Origin: a virus
Lineage: Duplodnaviria; Heunggongvirae; Uroviricota; Caudoviricetes
Reading direction: 5' to 3' (one strand)
Virus record (IMG/VR): IMGVR_UViG_2695420728_000019
Location: 1-8,992 of that record
DNA: 8,992 nt
Shown: positions 590 through 8,992 of the stretch, piece after piece
How the letters are laid out: each line of letters starts with the position of its first letter
Position numbering within the stretch: position 1 is the first letter of the stretch
The notes under the pieces: generated by a model
Told to the model about the DNA's origin: nothing
Database searches by the model: none
The model's input: the letters and a program-made list of their open reading frames with translations, nothing else
Program-made: the position numbers and the translations under genes

Positions 590-1747
590 TTAATCGTCGT
601 CCTGTGGCAGTTCCAGAATCTTGATCGCGTTCGAATCCACCACGCCACCGCCTAAATATTTCTGCGTGAAAATTTTGATAAAGCCCGGCTCTGTCAGGTT
701 GTCCGGTCTGGTGCGCACGCCCGTTTCATGATCAACGATGTAATAACCGCGTTTGAAGTCACCCAGGGCGATAACGTTATCCGGCATAAATTCCAGATAC
801 TCCACCGGAAGCCCCAGCAACGTATCAGGATCACCCGCCTGTAAACGGTCGCGCCAGATGTAATCGCCGTTCGCGTTCTTCACCTTCTGAAGTTTTGCCG
901 CCGTCGTGGAGTTAACCACCCAGACCGCGTTTTTGCGGTATTTTTTACGTAATGCAAATTTCAGGTCGATCAGCGGGTCCGCAGATGTCCACGCCAGAGA
1001 TTCGGAAGGTTTAATTACCTGCAACGTACCAAAATCACGCTCTTTGTCGTTCTTCTCTGCACGGGGTACGGATAAAAAACCTTTTGCTTTTTTGTCACCG
1101 TCGCCCACAACCAGATCGCTTTCTTCGGTTTCCGTGAAGGTGTCGCCAATCTCACCCGTCAGCCATGAAAGGATGTCCACATCGGAAAAATCCACGATTT
1201 CCTGTGTGGTGCGCGGGTACGCATAGACCGGATACAGCTTAATGCTCACCTCGTTAATCTGCGGGGTGCTGGTCTGTTCGCGTGTCTTACCCTCTTCACC
1301 GTGGTTAACGGTCGCACCGCCAGCGGAAACAAGCTGCTTAAACTCGTTGCTGCTGATTTTCTTCACGGTACAGATGCGGCGCATGGTGGATTCATCCGTC
1401 AGCATTCGCATGATTTCGGTGTTCAGTTCGGGGATAACGGTATAACCACCATCAGCGGGAACGCCTGTACTTAATGCGCGGGTTTCACCTGTCAGAATGT
1501 AGTTGCGTAGTTCTGCGGGGTCAGTGGTCTGGCTGCTTTTACCTGGCTTGCTGCGCTCTTCGTCTGCAATGGCTTCAAGGCGGGAAATGTCTTTATCGAG
1601 GGATTCAGCTTTAGCGCGTAATTCGTCAAATTTTGCGCCCTCAGCATCGTTAAGACTGCGGTTTTCTTTTTCCGCGTTCTCCAGCATGTCGCGCATCTGA
1701 TTTTTAATGGCGGTTTTCTGCTGGCGTAATTCGATTATTCTCGGCAT
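590..1747 (-). CDS. Major capsid protein, HK97 fold (385 aa from ATG at 1745-1747)
   Basis: N-terminal coiled-coil delta-domain-like segment (ELRQQKTAIKNQMRDMLENAEKENRSLNDAEGAKFDELRAKAESLDKDISRLEA), followed by blocks typical of the Phage_capsid family (GGYTVIPELNTEIMRMLTDESTMRRI; LVVGDGDKKAKGFL; AVWVVNSTTAAKL; GDPDTLLGLPVEYLEF; IALGDFKRGYYIVDHETGVRTRPD). The track ORF begins at a GTG at 1795; the ATG at 1747 has AGGA 8 nt upstream and is preferred. Confidence 0.85.
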   Translation of the reverse strand: MPRIIELRQQKTAIKNQMRDMLENAEKENRSLNDAEGAKFDELRAKAESLDKDISRLEAIADEERSKPGKSSQTTDPAELRNYILTGETRALSTGVPADGGYTVIPELNTEIMRMLTDESTMRRICTVKKISSNEFKQLVSAGGATVNHGEEGKTREQTSTPQINEVSIKLYPVYAYPRTTQEIVDFSDVDILSWLTGEIGDTFTETEESDLVVGDGDKKAKGFLSVPRAEKNDKERDFGTLQVIKPSESLAWTSADPLIDLKFALRKKYRKNAVWVVNSTTAAKLQKVKNANGDYIWRDRLQAGDPDTLLGLPVEYLEFMPDNVIALGDFKRGYYIVDHETGVRTRPDNLTEPGFIKIFTQKYLGGGVVDSNAIKILELPQDDD

Positions 1748-1783
1748 AAAAAAAGTCCTGGGGTTAAGTAAGGAACTCCAGGA
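1748..1783 (-). promoter_or_regulatory. Stable hairpin (11-bp stem with one G-T wobble, 8-nt loop) followed on the minus strand by T6 and then directly by the capsid ATG; terminator-like or translational control structure
   Basis: Arms 1754-1764 and 1773-1783 (GTCCTGG.../...CCAGGAC core), with 1748-1753 reading TTTTTT on the minus strand. The AGGA Shine-Dalgarno of the capsid gene lies inside the 3' arm. Confidence 0.35.
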
Positions 1784-1836
1784 CGCGGCAAACACTCAAC
1801 CGTTTTTCATAAGGAAATCAGTAATCGCACCGATCG

Positions 1837-1886
1837 TTTTCCCGCCTGGTAATGAATATTGGCGAGCACATTAACAGGCGGGAAAA
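1837..1886. promoter_or_regulatory. Perfect 12-bp inverted repeat TTTTCCCGCCTG / CAGGCGGGAAAA separated by 26 bp, in the intergenic region upstream of the capsid operon
   Basis: Arms at 1837-1848 and 1875-1886 read directly; the spacer is AT-rich (GTAATGAATATTGGCGAGCACATTAA). Lies between the PerC-like terminator and the capsid gene. Confidence 0.35.
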
Positions 1887-2006
1887 TGGCCCCAGCGTCC
1901 TGGCACCACGGGCGAGAATAATCATGATTCAGGTCGGGTAAAATATGCCGTTCCGGTCAGCGAGCAACGTGGAACAACCACGAACAAATAATTTACAAAA
2001 CATGAC

Positions 2007-2027
2007 AAAAAGCCGGATTGCTCCGGC
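2007..2027 (-). terminator. Rho-independent terminator downstream of the PerC-like gene
   Basis: Minus strand reads GCCGGA-GCAA-TCCGGC followed by TTTTTGTCATGTTTTG. Stem 2012-2017/2022-2027, U-tract from 2007-2011; 8 nt after the stop codon at 2035-2037. Confidence 0.55.
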
Positions 2028-2034
2028 TGTGTGA

Positions 2035-2307
2035 TTATCTGTCCTGGTAATTTCGCCATATTTCATCGCTTACACCATCTATACCCATTTCAGCATAAGT
2101 GCGATCTACTGCCTTTCTCAGGTCTCCGAAGTTATCCGGCGGCTCCGGTGGCTTCTGTGCCTTCCTGGAACATTCCAGCCGTCGCATCGTAACCTGATGC
2201 CGTTCCTTGTCTGTCTCCACCAGCAGCATGACTTCACCCCATCGCGCCGCCGCCCTCCGGTAAAAGCCTTTCGCCTCGAGTTCTTCCGCTATGCGGTCAT
2301 GTACCAT
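2035..2307 (-). CDS. PerC-family-like small transcriptional regulator (90 aa from ATG at 2305-2307)
   Basis: MVHDRIAEELEAKGFYRRAAARWGEVM...PPEPP...AEMGIDG matches my recollection of the PerC-family signature (IAE.LEAKG.WRRAA.RW). Strong RBS GAGGGGGTGG 5 nt upstream of this ATG; the longer track ORF (to 2427) would overlap ssb by over 100 nt and is rejected. Confidence 0.55.
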   Translation of the reverse strand: MVHDRIAEELEAKGFYRRAAARWGEVMLLVETDKERHQVTMRRLECSRKAQKPPEPPDNFGDLRKAVDRTYAEMGIDGVSDEIWRNYQDR

Positions 2308-2317
2308 CGCCACCCCC

Positions 2318-2728
2318 TCAGAACGGAATACCGTCACCGTAAGGGTCATCGCCTCCCGCTGGTGGCTGATTACCCTGTGTGCCTGTGGTTTTGCGTCTGT
2401 TCCCGCCAGGACGTGCCGCACGGGCACTGATTACGCTGTCTGCAATAACCTGATAACCCTGCCGCGTTTCCCCGTTCTGTCCGGTCCACTGGCTGACCTG
2501 CATCGTGCCGGATACGCTGGCAACGTCGCCTTTTTGGTGTTTAGCCAGGAAGTCGGCCTGCTTACCAAATGCGATGACCGATAGCCATAACGTAGCCTGC
2601 CCATCCTGCGCCTGACTACATGGCAACGATACCGCCATACGTGCCAGCGTCATTGGTGTGCCCTTGCTGGTCTGTTTTACCTGCGGGTCGTCCACCAGCC
2701 GCCCGTAAGCTGCTATCTGTGCTGTCAT
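2318..2728 (-). CDS. ssb: Single-stranded DNA-binding protein (136 aa)
   Basis: OB-fold blocks align with E. coli SSB (IAAYGRLVDDPQVK ~ VILVGNLGQDPEVR; WLSVIAFGKQADFLAKHQKGDVASVSGTMQVSQWTGQNGETR ~ [43 protein letters not shown]). Gly/Pro-rich linker and acidic C-terminal tail DDPYGDGIPF (compare ...DFDDDIPF). RBS GAGGTGG upstream; ATGA overlap with the upstream ORF. Confidence 0.8.
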   Translation of the reverse strand: MTAQIAAYGRLVDDPQVKQTSKGTPMTLARMAVSLPCSQAQDGQATLWLSVIAFGKQADFLAKHQKGDVASVSGTMQVSQWTGQNGETRQGYQVIADSVISARAARPGGNRRKTTGTQGNQPPAGGDDPYGDGIPF

Positions 2729-2976
2729 GATTCCACCTCTCCGGTTTTAACGTTGATGGTTGTCACCTGTTCAGCTTCCGCAATCTCCCGCTCTGTCAGC
2801 GTGGCAAAATTTGCCGCCGTCGTGGTCATGAATGCGCTTATCAGTTCGGGATGTGCTTTCGCGTATCCTTCCCCCGCGTGGCGGTCTATCGTTCTGATTG
2901 CCACCTTTAAGGCGTGCTCTGTCATGTCTAACGCTTTATATTTTGGCTCTGTTCTGTCTCTGTGTTTTTGAGTCAT
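2725..2976 (-). CDS. Hypothetical small protein (83 aa from ATG at 2974-2976), translationally coupled to ssb
   Basis: ATG preceded by GAGGTGG. The longer track ORF (to 3108) would read through the iteron array and is rejected. No recognisable family. Stop overlaps the ssb start (ATGA). Confidence 0.4.
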   Translation of the reverse strand: MTQKHRDRTEPKYKALDMTEHALKVAIRTIDRHAGEGYAKAHPELISAFMTTTAANFATLTEREIAEAEQVTTINVKTGEVES

Positions 2977-2978
2977 TT

Positions 2979-3181
2979 GCCCACCTCTACCCACTTTTTT
3001 CGCCCACTTTTTACGTTTTCCCACTTCGTCCAACGTGGGAAATTTGGGATTTATATCATCTTGTTTCATAGGTATTTTTTTAGTGCCCACTTTTTGGGAT
3101 ATATACACGTGGGAAAGTGGGTAATTTTGTTAAAATTCCGTTAAATCGCCCACCTTTCCCACTTTTAATGCCCACTTTTTA
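2979..3181. repeat. Iteron-type replication origin: about 11 copies of a CCCAC core (8 direct, 3 inverted) flanking an AT-rich stretch
   Basis: Direct CCCAC at 2980, 2990, 3003, 3020, 3086, 3149, 3158, 3171; longer form (G)CCCACTTTTT at 2990, 3003, 3086, 3171. Inverted GTGGG at 3035, 3109, 3117. AT-rich candidate unwinding element 3048-3083. Sits immediately 3' of the replication gene; the last iteron overlaps its stop codon. Confidence 0.6.
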
Positions 3182-4579
3182 CAGTGGTCCTACATCATCA
3201 CCGTCAATGTAGATCACGTCGTCTTTTTCCAGTTTGGCTAACCATCGTTTAAGGTGTTTTGTGTCATACCCCAGCTTTTTCATATCGTCACGTAACAGCG
3301 GGATCGTGCACTTGTCGCCGTGCTGTGTGCGTGAACGTATGCATCCCCATAGCGCGGTATGGTTTTCCGTCTTGTTCCCTGCCTCCTCGATGCGCTCCAG
3401 TTCAACAGGAGGGCGCGGATCATCCACCACCACCAGCGACGTGATTAATTCACCGTCAGCGTCGGTAAAAAGCTCCACCACGCGTAAGTCATATGCGGCT
3501 TCTTTGAGTTCCTCCGCGTCCTTCATTTTGGTGCATGAGATAACCAGCGCTTCGCTTCCTGCGTCCTCCCTGCGTATCCGGTATTCAGCATCCAGCGAAG
3601 CACGAAATGCACTGGAACCGCGCGCGCCTTTCGTCTCATCCTTGCCGGAATGGTGAACCACCAGCACCGTGGCCCCTGTGCGTCGTTTCAGTTCGTCACA
3701 ACCACGGATAAACGCCCCCATATCACGGGAATCATTTTCATCATTCCCACCAAAGCAACGCGCCAGCGTATCCAGAATAATCATGCGTACAGGTTTACCC
3801 GTTTCCCGCTCCACCTGACGGGCAGCGATAACCATTTCATCAACATCAAGCGGGGCAGCCGGAAAGATGGGGCGGTTTACCAGATACAGATTTTTCACCT
3901 GCTCATCGTGCACAACCTCCCAGGCTTTTACACGACGCGGAACACCTATACCGCCTTCACCAACCACATAGAGAACCGCACCATGTGCAACCCTGCGGCC
4001 TCCCCACTGGCGACCAGTGGCAACATGGCACGCCCACGATCCGGCAAGGAATGATTTATAGGACCCGCTAGCCCCGTATATGCTGCATAGCGATACCGCC
4101 GGAATAATCCCCTTAACCACGTAATCCAGTTGCGTGTCGTATCCGGTAGATCCAACGCTCATCGGTAGCGTGGTTTTTCGCTGGTGGTTTTTTTCTTCCG
4201 CCGGCTCTTTCCCGCGCACCCGTTCCAGGTATTCGCGCCAGTTCTCCCGCATATGGCTGTGCATCCCTTCGGGGTAATAATTCGCATCAGTTACACCCGC
4301 CGCCGCCAGCTTGTGCGCAATGGCATTAATATTTGATGGCCTGATGTGGCCTGCCTTGTACAGCCGGACACAATAGCGCCCCTCGTCGATGATTCTCAGG
4401 TCTGCCAGTTCATCCAGTTGATCATCAGCCAGCACAACGGGAGGCACATTATCGCCAGCCAGTCGCCCGTCCTGTTCCTGCCACTGTTTCGCATGTGCCC
4501 AGGCATCACTACCCGCAAAAATAATGACTTCGGTCATCTTGTCGTAAGGCTGTTTTTTTAAGTTCGGTGCGCTTTTCAT
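3179..4579 (-). CDS. Replication initiator/helicase, AAA_25 (RepA-like, RecA-fold) ATPase with ~190-aa N-terminal domain of unknown fold (466 aa)
   Basis: P-loop region SIYGASGSYKSFLAGSWACHVATGRQWGGRRVAHGAVLYVVGEG, Walker B-like MIILDTLARCFGG, and VLVVHHSGKD block typical of RepA/AAA_25 helicases. ATG with AGGGG RBS; ATGA overlap with the upstream ORF. Confidence 0.8.
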   Translation of the reverse strand: MKSAPNLKKQPYDKMTEVIIFAGSDAWAHAKQWQEQDGRLAGDNVPPVVLADDQLDELADLRIIDEGRYCVRLYKAGHIRPSNINAIAHKLAAAGVTDANYYPEGMHSHMRENWREYLERVRGKEPAEEKNHQRKTTLPMSVGSTGYDTQLDYVVKGIIPAVSLCSIYGASGSYKSFLAGSWACHVATGRQWGGRRVAHGAVLYVVGEGGIGVPRRVKAWEVVHDEQVKNLYLVNRPIFPAAPLDVDEMVIAARQVERETGKPVRMIILDTLARCFGGNDENDSRDMGAFIRGCDELKRRTGATVLVVHHSGKDETKGARGSSAFRASLDAEYRIRREDAGSEALVISCTKMKDAEELKEAAYDLRVVELFTDADGELITSLVVVDDPRPPVELERIEEAGNKTENHTALWGCIRSRTQHGDKCTIPLLRDDMKKLGYDTKHLKRWLAKLEKDDVIYIDGDDVGPL

Positions 4580-4875
4580 TTCTTGCCCCTGAATCCGTTA
4601 ATCATGGTTTTCAGCTTCTGGATGTTTGCCCGTGCCCTGGCGTTGCTGGTGGGCACGTTATGCGGCGCGGTCTGTACCAGAGAAAAATCACGCCGGAACT
4701 GATAAACAGGCATCACGCAATCATATTCGTAACCTTCACGGCGGTAAGTTACGCACCGTCCCGCCACGCCCTTAATCATTACCGTGCCGCCGTACTGGTC
4801 GCGGTAAATATCACCGCGCGTAAATTTAGGGTGAGTGTTGCCACTGGCAGTTAAGCCAGAATATTTAAGTTTCAT
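4576..4875 (-). CDS. Hypothetical protein (99 aa), translationally coupled to the replication gene
   Basis: ATG start, stop overlaps the rep ATG (ATGA). Basic, mixed composition unlike the antisense artefacts; no family recognised. Confidence 0.5.
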   Translation of the reverse strand: MKLKYSGLTASGNTHPKFTRGDIYRDQYGGTVMIKGVAGRCVTYRREGYEYDCVMPVYQFRRDFSLVQTAPHNVPTSNARARANIQKLKTMINGFRGKK

Positions 4876-5337: not shown

Positions 5338-5555
5338 AACCCCCCCTCCCCATTTTCACAATCAGCAACAAGAATATTTTTAGCGTCATTCAGCGACCGC
5401 GTGGCGGTGTATCGGATACATTCCAGGGCGAACAATGTGTATTCTTCCCGTTCTTCCTTTTGTGCAAGCCCTGCTGTGCATTCAATATCAATAAGCGCAT
5501 GCATCAGCGTAGTGAGCGCGGCGGCGGCTGCGTCCGGCGTGGTTTTATTGTGCAT
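5310..5555 (-). CDS. Hypothetical small protein (81 aa from ATG at 5553-5555)
   Basis: Track ORF starts at a TTG at 5585; the internal ATG at 5555 has AGGGGGA 8 nt upstream. Overlaps neighbours by 11 and 28 nt; start uncertain. Confidence 0.35.
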   Translation of the reverse strand: MHNKTTPDAAAAALTTLMHALIDIECTAGLAQKEEREEYTLFALECIRYTATRSLNDAKNILVADCENGEGGLCVMIVLIP

Positions 5556-5718
5556 AGGTTTCCCCCTGACGAATACGGGCGACAAAAATCAGATGTGCGT
5601 GCGGCAGCTGGGCGCGGGCTTCGCGTTCTGTTGCTGCCGTGACGGTAAAGAGTGAGGTTTGTTTTTCCTGGCACTGCATAAAGCGCCAGACAAAATAAGG
5701 GCGTGCGGATACAGCCAT
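5545..5718 (-). CDS. Icd-like (host cell division inhibitor-like / Ash-related) small protein, paralog 2 (57-aa core; the frame is open upstream to an ATG at 6012 giving an alternative 155-aa product)
   Basis: YFVWRFMQCQEKQTSLFTVTAATEREARAQLPHAHLIFVARIRQG fits the W.F....I.V.A.SE.EAR......F.AR signature I recall for Icd-like proteins of P4-like elements. ATG at 5716-5718 has GGGAG upstream. Confidence 0.5.
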   Translation of the reverse strand: MAVSARPYFVWRFMQCQEKQTSLFTVTAATEREARAQLPHAHLIFVARIRQGETYAQ

Positions 5719-6004
5719 GTGAAAGGCTCCCAGATGAATTTTAAGGAGTCTCGCTACTACGCTGTCAAACATGGTGGCGAGACGTAACAGGGTTGACAGA
5801 CTGGTCATCTGGAAACCAGCGAGCACAAAGGCTCCCCCGTTACGCCCCGCCATAATGCGGGTATGGGTAGGTTTACGGACACAAAAAAACCGCTTATCGG
5901 ATGTGGGCGGCTGTCCGCCAGATGTATTCAGGCTGTCAAACCCGGTCGCCATGTGGGCGACGGGGGAAGCATACAGCCCCGTGATAATTTTTTGCAAGCG
6001 GTTT

Positions 6005-6208
6005 TTACGCATGATGTGACCCCTGACGAATACGGGCAGCGAATACCATCACGCAGCCAGCCGGAGATTGCTGGCGTGCTTCCTGTTCGCTGGTGGCCTC
6101 AATGGTAATCACGCGCGGTTGTGCCGTGCTCAGGGCGATAAAACGCCAGATGTATTTATTCAGGTTGTACGAGTCCCGCCCTTGCGGGTGTATGGTATGA
6201 TTTCTCAT
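6005..6208 (-). CDS. Icd-like small protein, paralog 1 (67 aa from ATG at 6206-6208)
   Basis: YIWRFIALSTAQPRVITIEATSEQEARQQSPAGCVMVFAARIRQG, same signature as paralog 2. First gene of the leftward operon, downstream of a candidate promoter at 6316-6344. Confidence 0.5.
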   Translation of the reverse strand: MRNHTIHPQGRDSYNLNKYIWRFIALSTAQPRVITIEATSEQEARQQSPAGCVMVFAARIRQGSHHA

Positions 6209-7211: not shown

Positions 7212-7400
7212 TTAATGAACTGCCTTGCAGCTATCCTTCCAGGCCAGAACCTCGGATAAAGACCAGCCAACGGAACGACCGCCAAGTTTACGACGTGATG
7301 GGAATTGTCCGGCCTTTTCCAGGCGGTAGCGACATGTACGGCTAAGGCCGGTTAGTTTTTCGCATTCTTTTTCACGTATAAACCGATCAGTGCTTAACAC
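7212..7400 (-). CDS. alpA: AlpA-family transcriptional regulator / excisionase-like protein (62 aa)
   Basis: LTGLSRTCRYRLEKAGQFPSRRKLGGRSVGWSLSEVLAWK matches the AlpA (Phage_AlpA) helix-turn-helix signature. Start is a GTG at 7398-7400 with AAGGGGG RBS 5 nt upstream. Lies immediately downstream of int. Confidence 0.8.
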   Translation of the reverse strand: MLSTDRFIREKECEKLTGLSRTCRYRLEKAGQFPSRRKLGGRSVGWSLSEVLAWKDSCKAVH

Positions 7401-7588: not shown

Positions 7589-7741
7589 TTTCTCGCTATT
7601 TAAAGAGTGATTCGCTAGTGTATAAAAAACCAGTAACACATTAAAAATCAGCTACTTATAAATCCGTACACTTTTTCGCCTCTTGTTCGTAGTTGTTCCG
7701 CATTGTTGCTCATTGTTGCATGTTGTATCTGTTCGCATATC

Positions 7742-7774: not shown

Positions 7775-8992
7775 TTATTTTCTTCTGGCTACTGGTAGCG
7801 TGGTTACGTTTTCATGTGTTCCCGCCAGTATCCCTAACCGCTCCGTCCACATATCCAGCGCATTGCGTTTAGCATCCAGATAACGGGAATGATTATAAAC
7901 TCGCTGCATTCCTGGCATCTGATGACCTGTAAGCTGCTCCACGACATGCGGATCAACGCCTAAATCGTTCAGCATGGTTGTAAAGGTGCGCCGGATGTCA
8001 TGCAGTGACCAGTGAGGATGATTAAGCCTCCTGTGCGCTAATCTTCCATACTGCGATACGCTGGCCTCCTGTTTCGCTTCCCCCAGCAATAAGCCCGTGT
8101 GCCTGTTCTGCTCCACCAGCTGCGTGACGAACGGCAGGATCGCTTCCGGTATGGGCCGGAATATTGCGACCTTCGTTTTGCTGTGCTCCTTCGGAACGGT
8201 CCATAGCATTTCCGTAAAATCCCACTCCCCGATCTCCGATAGCCTCAGTTCTACCGTCCTGGCTCCGAAGACAATCAGGAGGCGGATTAACGCGACGTAG
8301 TAAGGGGAAAATATTTTTTTGTCCAGTGCCTGCAATAATTCGCCAAGTTCTTTGTTACTTAAGACACGTTCGCTTATATCCGGTTTTTTCCCAACGTCCG
8401 CCACGTTCAGATCGTCCAGAACGTTGCTGATTGCATAGCGCCGCCTACGGCAAAACTTAAGCGCCTGTTTGCACGCCTGTAGCACGAATCCGGCAGTAAC
8501 AGGCGTTCGCTTTGCCACCTGGTCAAAACAGGCCAGCCAGTGCCGTAGCTCGCATTTATCCAGCGGCATAGCACCAATCTGCTGTATTACGTGATTATTA
8601 AGTCGCCTTTTCAGGGCGATATAATCCACGCGGTTTTCCTTTACGTAATACTCAAGCCAGTAGGTGAGCGCATCGCCAACCGTTACGGGCTTTAACGCTT
8701 CCTGTACGGTGTAATTCATCTCATGACGTGGATTTTTCCCCTCAGCCAGCCATGTGCGACACTGTGCGGCTTTTTCCCTGGCTACTTTCAGGCTCAGATC
8801 AGGATAACTTCCCAGCTTAATGCGTTCGGGTCGTGTCTCCCTTCCCGTTCCGGCCCTGTATGTGAAATACCAGGTCAATTTCCCTGATGTTAAATATTTC
8901 ACGCTCAGGTTTCCGCCATCACTATAAAACGTGTTTTTCTCCGCTGGCTTACCATGAAGTTTCCTTAGCAAGGTATCGCTCAGTTTGTTCAT
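7775..8992 (-). CDS. int: Tyrosine-type site-specific integrase, P4-like (405 aa)
   Basis: N-terminal arm-binding-type domain (LSVKYLTSGKLTWYFTYRAGTGRETRPERIKLGSY) and C-terminal catalytic blocks (HDIRRTF, GHQMPGMQRVYNHSRY with the catalytic Tyr). The ATG is the last three bases of the window (8990-8992). Confidence 0.9.
   Translation of the reverse strand: MNKLSDTLLRKLHGKPAEKNTFYSDGGNLSVKYLTSGKLTWYFTYRAGTGRETRPERIKLGSYPDLSLKVAREKAAQCRTWLAEGKNPRHEMNYTVQEALKPVTVGDALTYWLEYYVKENRVDYIALKRRLNNHVIQQIGAMPLDKCELRHWLACFDQVAKRTPVTAGFVLQACKQALKFCRRRRYAISNVLDDLNVADVGKKPDISERVLSNKELGELLQALDKKIFSPYYVALIRLLIVFGARTVELRLSEIGEWDFTEMLWTVPKEHSKTKVAIFRPIPEAILPFVTQLVEQNRHTGLLLGEAKQEASVSQYGRLAHRRLNHPHWSLHDIRRTFTTMLNDLGVDPHVVEQLTGHQMPGMQRVYNHSRYLDAKRNALDMWTERLGILAGTHENVTTLPVARRK

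Follow-up and report, generated by a model that had tools for sequence, protein, structure and literature searches.

The locus analysed here raises the question of what is controlled by a PerC-family protein encoded at the junction between a replication block and a capsid gene. The stretch of DNA studied, referred to here as the window, is 8,992 nt long, and a reading made from its sequence alone had placed a PerC-like gene at positions 2035-2307. An open reading frame was found exactly at these coordinates, on the minus strand, which that reading had not stated, with the ATG at 2307-2305 and the stop codon at 2037-2035, giving a product of 90 aa from 273 bp. A longer mechanical open reading frame of 130 aa starts at GTG 2427 and runs into ssb; the Pfam match begins at residue 41 of this frame, encoded by the ATG at 2307. 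An HMM search upheld the proposed family, matching the 90-aa protein over its full length to the PF06069 PerC profile (profile positions 1-89 of 90, E = 1.3e-44, 150.8 bits, cut-off 22.6), and the coding sequence is 100% identical to RefSeq WP_000233300.1, labelled 'PerC family transcriptional regulator'. Together, the open reading frame list, the Pfam match, the RefSeq identity and the identity to PchE described below define a perC gene of the pchE type, which is real and already annotated. No NCBIfam model matched the 90-aa protein, the best PHROG was phrog_994 (function unknown) and weaker 'transcriptional activator' PHROGs matched residues 1-52 only. PF06069 was present in all 46 close homologues, and the family is small: a search of 1.84 billion proteins at E <= 0.001 gave 239 cluster representatives. 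Membership of the ANR family, an idea raised for EcCIMP1_025 (PMC11773190), was rejected, PF06069 being the sole Pfam family at E <= 0.01.

As had been read from the sequence, perC lies between the replication and capsid modules. Immediately upstream is ssb (2318-2728, minus strand; Pfam SSB, E = 4.2e-17), and 287 nt separate perC from the ATG of the downstream HK97-type major capsid protein gene (590-1747, minus strand; Pfam Phage_capsid, E = 2.6e-61), an identical copy of which is annotated in RefSeq. Direct reading of the sequence gave a Shine-Dalgarno motif for perC, GAGGGGG, at 2313-2319 (minus strand), overlapping the ssb stop codon (2318-2320), and the gap of only 10 nt between the ssb stop and the perC ATG suggests that the two genes are co-transcribed and possibly translationally coupled. 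perC is followed by an intrinsic terminator at 2006-2028 (minus strand; AGCCGGA-GCAA-TCCGGCT, then UUUUUGU), located by terminator scan and RNA folding (-13.2 kcal/mol, z = -4.0). Pairwise dN/dS values of 0.26-0.58 against nine homologues indicate that perC is under purifying selection.

The AF2 model of PerC contains five helices (pLDDT 84.8), and the protein is predicted to be small and all-helical, with a TPR-like three-helix N-terminal domain. An alignment of 16 sequences retained 34 invariant positions, most of them in the first ~50 residues, and the N-terminal motif AEELEAKGFYRRAAARW of the window protein aligns with EPEC PerC of pMAR7. Structure and domain analysis recognised no DNA-binding fold in PerC, nor a DNA- or RNA-polymerase-binding domain of the kind typical of known late regulators. 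Small proteins that turn on morphogenesis genes include the P4 Delta/Ogr zinc-finger activators, P4 Vis and lambdoid Q. PerC differs from these in showing no homology or domain match to any of them (Pfam, PHROG) and, in contrast to a core late regulator, in being dispensable in many islands; the parallel to P4 Vis is the excisionase-like AlpA rather than PerC.

The window covers the left portion of a phage-inducible chromosomal island of the capsid-forming kind (cf-PICI). Its minus-strand genes follow the order integrase, alpA, Icd-like ORFs with C4, DUF4222/RgdR, RepA-type helicase, ssb, perC and capsid, and the start of a prohead protease gene ends the series. Among them are a tyrosine integrase (7775-8992), alpA (7212-7400), a PICI master activator and excisionase-family gene (Pfam Phage_AlpA, E = 5.4e-17; PHROG 'excisionase and transcriptional regulator'), the DUF4222/RgdR gene (4576-4875) and a RepA-type helicase (3179-4579), all on the minus strand. 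A 97%-identical island occupies a split tqsA gene in E. coli 2013C-4991 (gap about 14.6 kb), where portal, head-closure, connector, HNH, P27-type TerS and TerL genes come next and tail and lysis genes are absent. Islands of this class are characterized by int, alpA and rep, by their own capsid, protease, portal, connector, HNH, TerS and TerL genes, by the absence of tail or lysis genes and by a size of about 10-15 kb (10.1101/2022.09.08.507074), and the window genes taken together with the 2013C-4991 island display these features. Of the 5426 complete E. coli genomes searched, whole-window matches came from 1913 and perC-capsid junction matches from 1143.

The early region also carries genes and RNAs beyond those of replication. 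Rfam identified a C4 antisense RNA (72.6 bits, E = 4.5e-13), accompanied by a1/b1 target sites and a sub-threshold isrK-like match; these C4-related features lie at 5770-5857, 5925-5974 and 5883-5961, all on the minus strand, upstream of and overlapping the Icd-like ORFs, and therefore point to a P1/P7-type c4-icd immunity cassette inside a satellite. Part of a 155-aa ORF at 5545-6012, which overlaps these features, may be spurious. The gene at 4576-4875 encodes a 99-aa DUF4222 protein with the RGD motif KFTRGDIY, 96% identical to the OI-51 copy. It is homologous to RgdR/ECs1581, which E. coli PICIs encode and which has been published as activating LEE type III secretion.

Comparison of related islands showed that the replication/early gene block closes, at its 3' end, with an accessory slot of variable content, which perC occupies in the window. 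Across 70 IMG/VR loci with a homologous capsid gene and at least 2.5 kb of upstream sequence, the slot held PerC in 44, ProQ/FinO in 13 and neither in 13, so that PerC was absent from 26 of 70 related cf-PICI loci having complete packaging modules (capsid, protease, portal, connector, HNH, TerS and TerL). Annotated PerC-less examples also exist among E. coli islands, and an ssb-ProQ-small gene-capsid junction was found in at least 44 complete E. coli genomes. In two loci, L026 and L040, a deletion has fused ssb to perC beside a 99%-identical capsid gene; the deletions are in frame and join the SSB N-terminus to the C-terminal part of PerC, and the conserved PerC N-terminal domain is gone. The sequence-only reading had made perC the last gene of the early operon, which holds in the window, where the terminator follows directly, and fails in 51 of the 70 loci, where a phrog_1957 gene of 74-82 aa separates the slot from the capsid leader. 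The hairpin corresponding to 2006-2028 sits after this small gene in relatives, not after perC. The phrog_1957 gene has been deleted in the window, and O157 relatives have about 354 bp extra at the junction, containing it. This gene, of unknown function, was also seen directly upstream of the terminator and leader in L003 (3341-3565), L012 (3226-3474) and L016 (4250-4489), and downstream of PchE in OI-51.

Beyond the terminator, and outside perC, alignment of 56 distinct leaders together with folding defined a conserved capsid-operon leader at 1748-2005 (minus strand, as are all of its elements). The conserved block opens with a box, TTTTGTAAA, at 1992-2000, whose core TTTGTAAA is present in 69 of 70 leaders, followed by three TTGTTC/TTGCTC repeats spaced at a 10-bp phase (1962-1987) and by a -35-like TTTACC (1937-1942) and a -10-like TATTCT (1915-1920). 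The last two form a promoter-like pair, TTTAC(C/A)-N16-TAtnnT, in which the hexamers are conserved and the spacer varies. Hairpin 1 (1892-1903) has a conserved GACG loop and a stem with compensatory changes across leader types, hairpin 2 (1837-1886) has a 12-bp stem, and hairpin 3 (1755-1784), together with the U7 run that follows it (1748-1754), holds the capsid Shine-Dalgarno sequence directly before the capsid ATG. A consensus sigma-70 promoter scan of 1500-3300 returned no site at 9/12 or better; the leader element matches the consensus at 8/12 only, and was recognised solely via its conservation across diverged loci. Rfam found nothing in the capsid leader, its sole find being the C4 RNA cassette elsewhere in the window, and an attempt at a whole-leader consensus fold beyond hairpin 1 failed, since the leader types do not align. 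The arrangement resembles the lambdoid PR'-tR' control region, with a promoter, a structured leader of roughly 155 nt and a terminator. Where opposite-strand genes have been inserted upstream, the conserved block still begins at the same box, which argues for a promoter of its own rather than read-through. The box, repeats and promoter-like element are alike in islands with or without PerC. On these sequence comparisons, the capsid leader appears to be a self-contained control region with its own promoter-like element.

A repeat scan located a second TTGTTC-N4-TTGTTC array at 7683-7718 (plus strand), between int and alpA. The window holds seven matches to this pattern against 1.03 expected, and 0 of 200 shuffles reached seven. 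The pattern recurs near both island ends in L001 (6498-6513, 20846-20861) and L002 (4629-4644, 14221-14246, 15616-15631), whose insertion sites differ. AlpA is published to activate its own promoter region and downstream PICI genes (PMC6092414). Because of this self-activation, and because further copies of the repeats lie upstream of alpA and close to the island ends, AlpA or Int would be a more plausible repeat binder and capsid-promoter activator than PerC, and the repeats may be AlpA or Int sites that couple excision, alpA autoactivation and capsid expression. Their identity as replication-origin iterons was set aside: they stay with the leader despite differing replication genes (RepA helicase or DUF927 primase), and also occur beside int/alpA and near the island ends. 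Counter-silencing of H-NS at the capsid leader was likewise rejected because the leader has 47.5% GC; within the window, AT content peaks in the alpA control region (34-37% GC). A separate 21-23-bp tandem GACTACACC-type sequence is repeated near both ends of islands at different chromosomal insertion sites (L001 6459-6481, 20797-20819; L002 4592-4612, 15569-15589), followed by similar flanks bearing GAAACAA/GGAACAA motifs.

PchE, a group 3 protein of EHEC O157:H7, is the PerC homologue of the island next to phoQ known as OI-51, CP-933C or Sp7 (PMC3378721). It has the same size as the window protein and shares 91% amino-acid identity with it over 89 residues, and its gene likewise comes straight after ssb, within an island of the int-alpA-rgdR-repA type, and is followed by the same terminator. 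Synteny with OI-51 spans alpA, rgdR (DUF4222), repA, ssb and perC, with neighbours at 96-100%, and this shared neighbourhood together with the 91% identity places the window protein in group 3 Pch, as PchE. The islands differ in location, that of PchE lying next to phoQ and that of the window in tqsA, and in what follows: whilst the window island continues into an HK97-type capsid-portal-terminase module, homology to OI-51 ends at ~2007, just past the terminator, and the near-identical PchE fronts an unrelated capsid/decoration/TerS-like module without TTGTTC repeats.

More distant relatives differ further in context and effect. EPEC PerC, encoded by perABC on the EAF plasmid pMAR7, belongs to the same Pfam family with 40% identity to the window protein, and the two share the N-terminal motif (E/K)xLExKGFYRRAAxRW. 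The EPEC gene is likewise last in its operon, but is plasmid-borne behind the AraC-type PerA. The original test of PerC2 and PerC3 is said to be that of Porter et al. in 2005. LEE1/ler is activated by EPEC PerC, but no more than about 2-fold by group 3 proteins, the effect of PchE on ler::lacZ being <2-fold (PMC5931665). PchA/B/C (group 1, from EHEC lambdoid prophages) are small, horizontally transferred regulators of the same family, encoded by genes of 315 bp (PMC5931665) compared with 273 bp for the window perC; they are SOS-induced, strong ler activators with an effect on adhesion opposite to that of PchE (PMC6265319, PMC7369912), and class-1 Pch relieves silencing mediated by H-NS/StpA/Hha (PMC4764244). 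EcCIMP1_025 of the PICI EcCIMP1 is also a PICI-encoded PerC-family protein, regarded as accessory and ~40% identical to the PerC-like proteins of EcCIEDL933 and EcCICFT073; it silences LEE1 in Citrobacter rodentium, and EcCIMP1 is without structural genes (PMC11773190). PICI PerC homologues gave no effect or repression at LEE1/ler (PMC11773190).

Outside these cf-PICIs, PerC homologues were found in elements of Pantoea, Lonsdalea, Erwinia, Chimaeribacter, Buttiauxella, E. albertii and E. ruysiae with int and/or alpA, placed after a primase, ssb or ProQ-like gene. Downstream of them come ORFs whose N-termini resemble those of signal peptides or lipoproteins, and no copy of either E. coli capsid module was found beside the PerC homologues of these elements. 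Homologues occurred on 141 plasmid records and in 2 of 50,697 phage records, one of the latter in an IS-rich cargo region of a P1-like phage.

Taken together, PerC in the window is probably an accessory regulator of the PchE type, working in trans on promoters of the host or of other horizontally acquired DNA, not a dedicated activator of the capsid operon. Action on host genes, which the sequence-only reading had offered as its alternative, agrees with published work on PchE and other PICI PerC homologues (PMC6265319, PMC7369912, PMC11773190), and for the window allele is drawn from that likeness: its targets would be csgD/curli, other adhesins and flagellar genes, and ler weakly. Over-expression of PchE strongly represses csgD/curli, biofilm formation and HEp-2 adhesion, PchE induces flagella (PMC6265319, PMC7369912), and deletion of pchE slightly increases curli (PMC6265319). 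By analogy with class-1 Pch, and since no DNA-binding fold was recognised, PerC may work through protein contacts, remodelling H-NS/Hha-type nucleoprotein complexes, or else transcription complexes, at promoters that are AT-rich and belong to the host or to horizontally acquired DNA. It would then be a regulator of the lysogenic-conversion type, acting in trans on the host, whilst the capsid operon would be served by its own promoter-like element and phased repeats, more plausibly bound by AlpA or Int.

The sequence-only reading had instead favoured PerC as a candidate late-gene activator, and either an activator or an antiterminator acting on the leader just downstream would suit the position of perC in the window, last before the terminator and 287 nt upstream of the capsid ATG. 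The range 1500-3300 contains no strong sigma-70 promoter, and the 8/12 match of the leader element is weak enough that an activator could be needed. Leaders with hairpin 3 plus the U-run were, moreover, all linked to a PerC hit (35/35, two of these perC genes being disrupted, versus 9/35 other leaders, as raw counts). Linkage is the simpler explanation of this association, because the 35 leaders are essentially one lineage, two of their perC genes are disrupted and perC adjoins the leader. The island comparisons spoke against the proposal, which we now regard as distinctly unlikely: complete packaging modules persist without PerC in 26 of 70 islands, with the leader elements kept; an extra gene intervenes between slot and leader in 51 of 70; and two U-run leaders are linked to a deleted perC. 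One locus, L055, pairs a window-type leader with a PerC type of 59% identity, so that PerC type and leader type do not change together. The module that PchE precedes is unrelated and lacks the repeats, and further copies of the repeats lie where AlpA or Int act, in the alpA promoter region and near the island ends. To these may be added the near absence of PerC from phage genomes and its lack of a DNA-binding fold. Expression of pchE is basal and drops 2-7-fold on SOS/prophage induction (PMC6265319, PMC5931665), unlike that expected of a late-gene activator. A narrower version, confined to the hairpin-plus-U-run lineage, in which PerC might let transcription or translation past a gate hiding the capsid ribosome-binding site, working through RNA polymerase or the covarying leader hairpin, has a slim chance of being correct. 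Were it so, the PerC family would be satellite late-gene regulators and their effects on virulence genes side effects.

PerC could also serve the island life cycle in another way, through H-NS-type anti-silencing of an AT-rich control region, replication or tuning of helper-phage genes. We consider this unlikely, albeit worth weighing because satellites of several genera keep perC directly behind a primase, ssb or ProQ-like gene. The low GC content of the alpA control region, the anti-silencing activity of class-1 Pch (PMC4764244) and the purifying selection on perC would all be in keeping with such a role, but perC is often absent from apparently intact islands, nothing ties it to replication or a helper phage, the capsid leader is not AT-rich, and expression of AlpA alone triggers excision and replication of EcCICFT073 (PMC6092414). 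It is highly improbable that PerC has no function today, whether as a neutral passenger or as a remnant in decay; presence/absence polymorphism in the slot and the ssb-perC deletion fusions would accord with it, but the dN/dS of 0.26-0.58 over nine comparisons, the 34 invariant positions, the good Shine-Dalgarno sequence and intact frame, and the measurable phenotypes of PchE (PMC6265319) all oppose it. A PchE-type accessory regulator of host promoters thus carries most of our confidence, against three considerations: its fixed position after the replication block in distant genera suggests an island-related role rather than random cargo; the host effects of PchE come mostly from plasmid over-expression, the deletion phenotype being slight (PMC6265319); and the association of PerC with hairpin/U-run leaders could stem from function instead of linkage.

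Both the gene and its family, as well as its occurrence in PICIs, are already known and annotated, PerC variants of Gram-negative PICIs having been published (PMC6092414, PMC11773190), and perC is in this sense an ordinary kind of gene. What the comparisons would add is matters of detail, namely that PerC appears dispensable for the cf-PICI capsid module and that the leader seems to carry repeats of the type found in the AlpA region. In practical terms this negative directs the search for the cf-PICI capsid switch to the promoter-like element, the phased TTGTTC repeats and the covarying hairpin of the leader, with AlpA or helper factors as better candidates for the switch than PerC. The benefit that native PerC brings to the satellite bears on the ways in which satellites reprogramme adhesion, motility and virulence in their E. 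coli hosts.

The other recurrent occupant of the slot is a ProQ/FinO-family RNA-binding protein, encoded in the place of PerC in L013 (3451-3981), L056, L066, L090 and others, ~510-1090 nt upstream of the capsid ATG. With a structured leader and a C4 antisense RNA in these satellites, a role for this protein in satellite RNA control is conceivable. In the E. albertii and E. ruysiae elements, a ProQ/FinO-family gene adjoins PerC.
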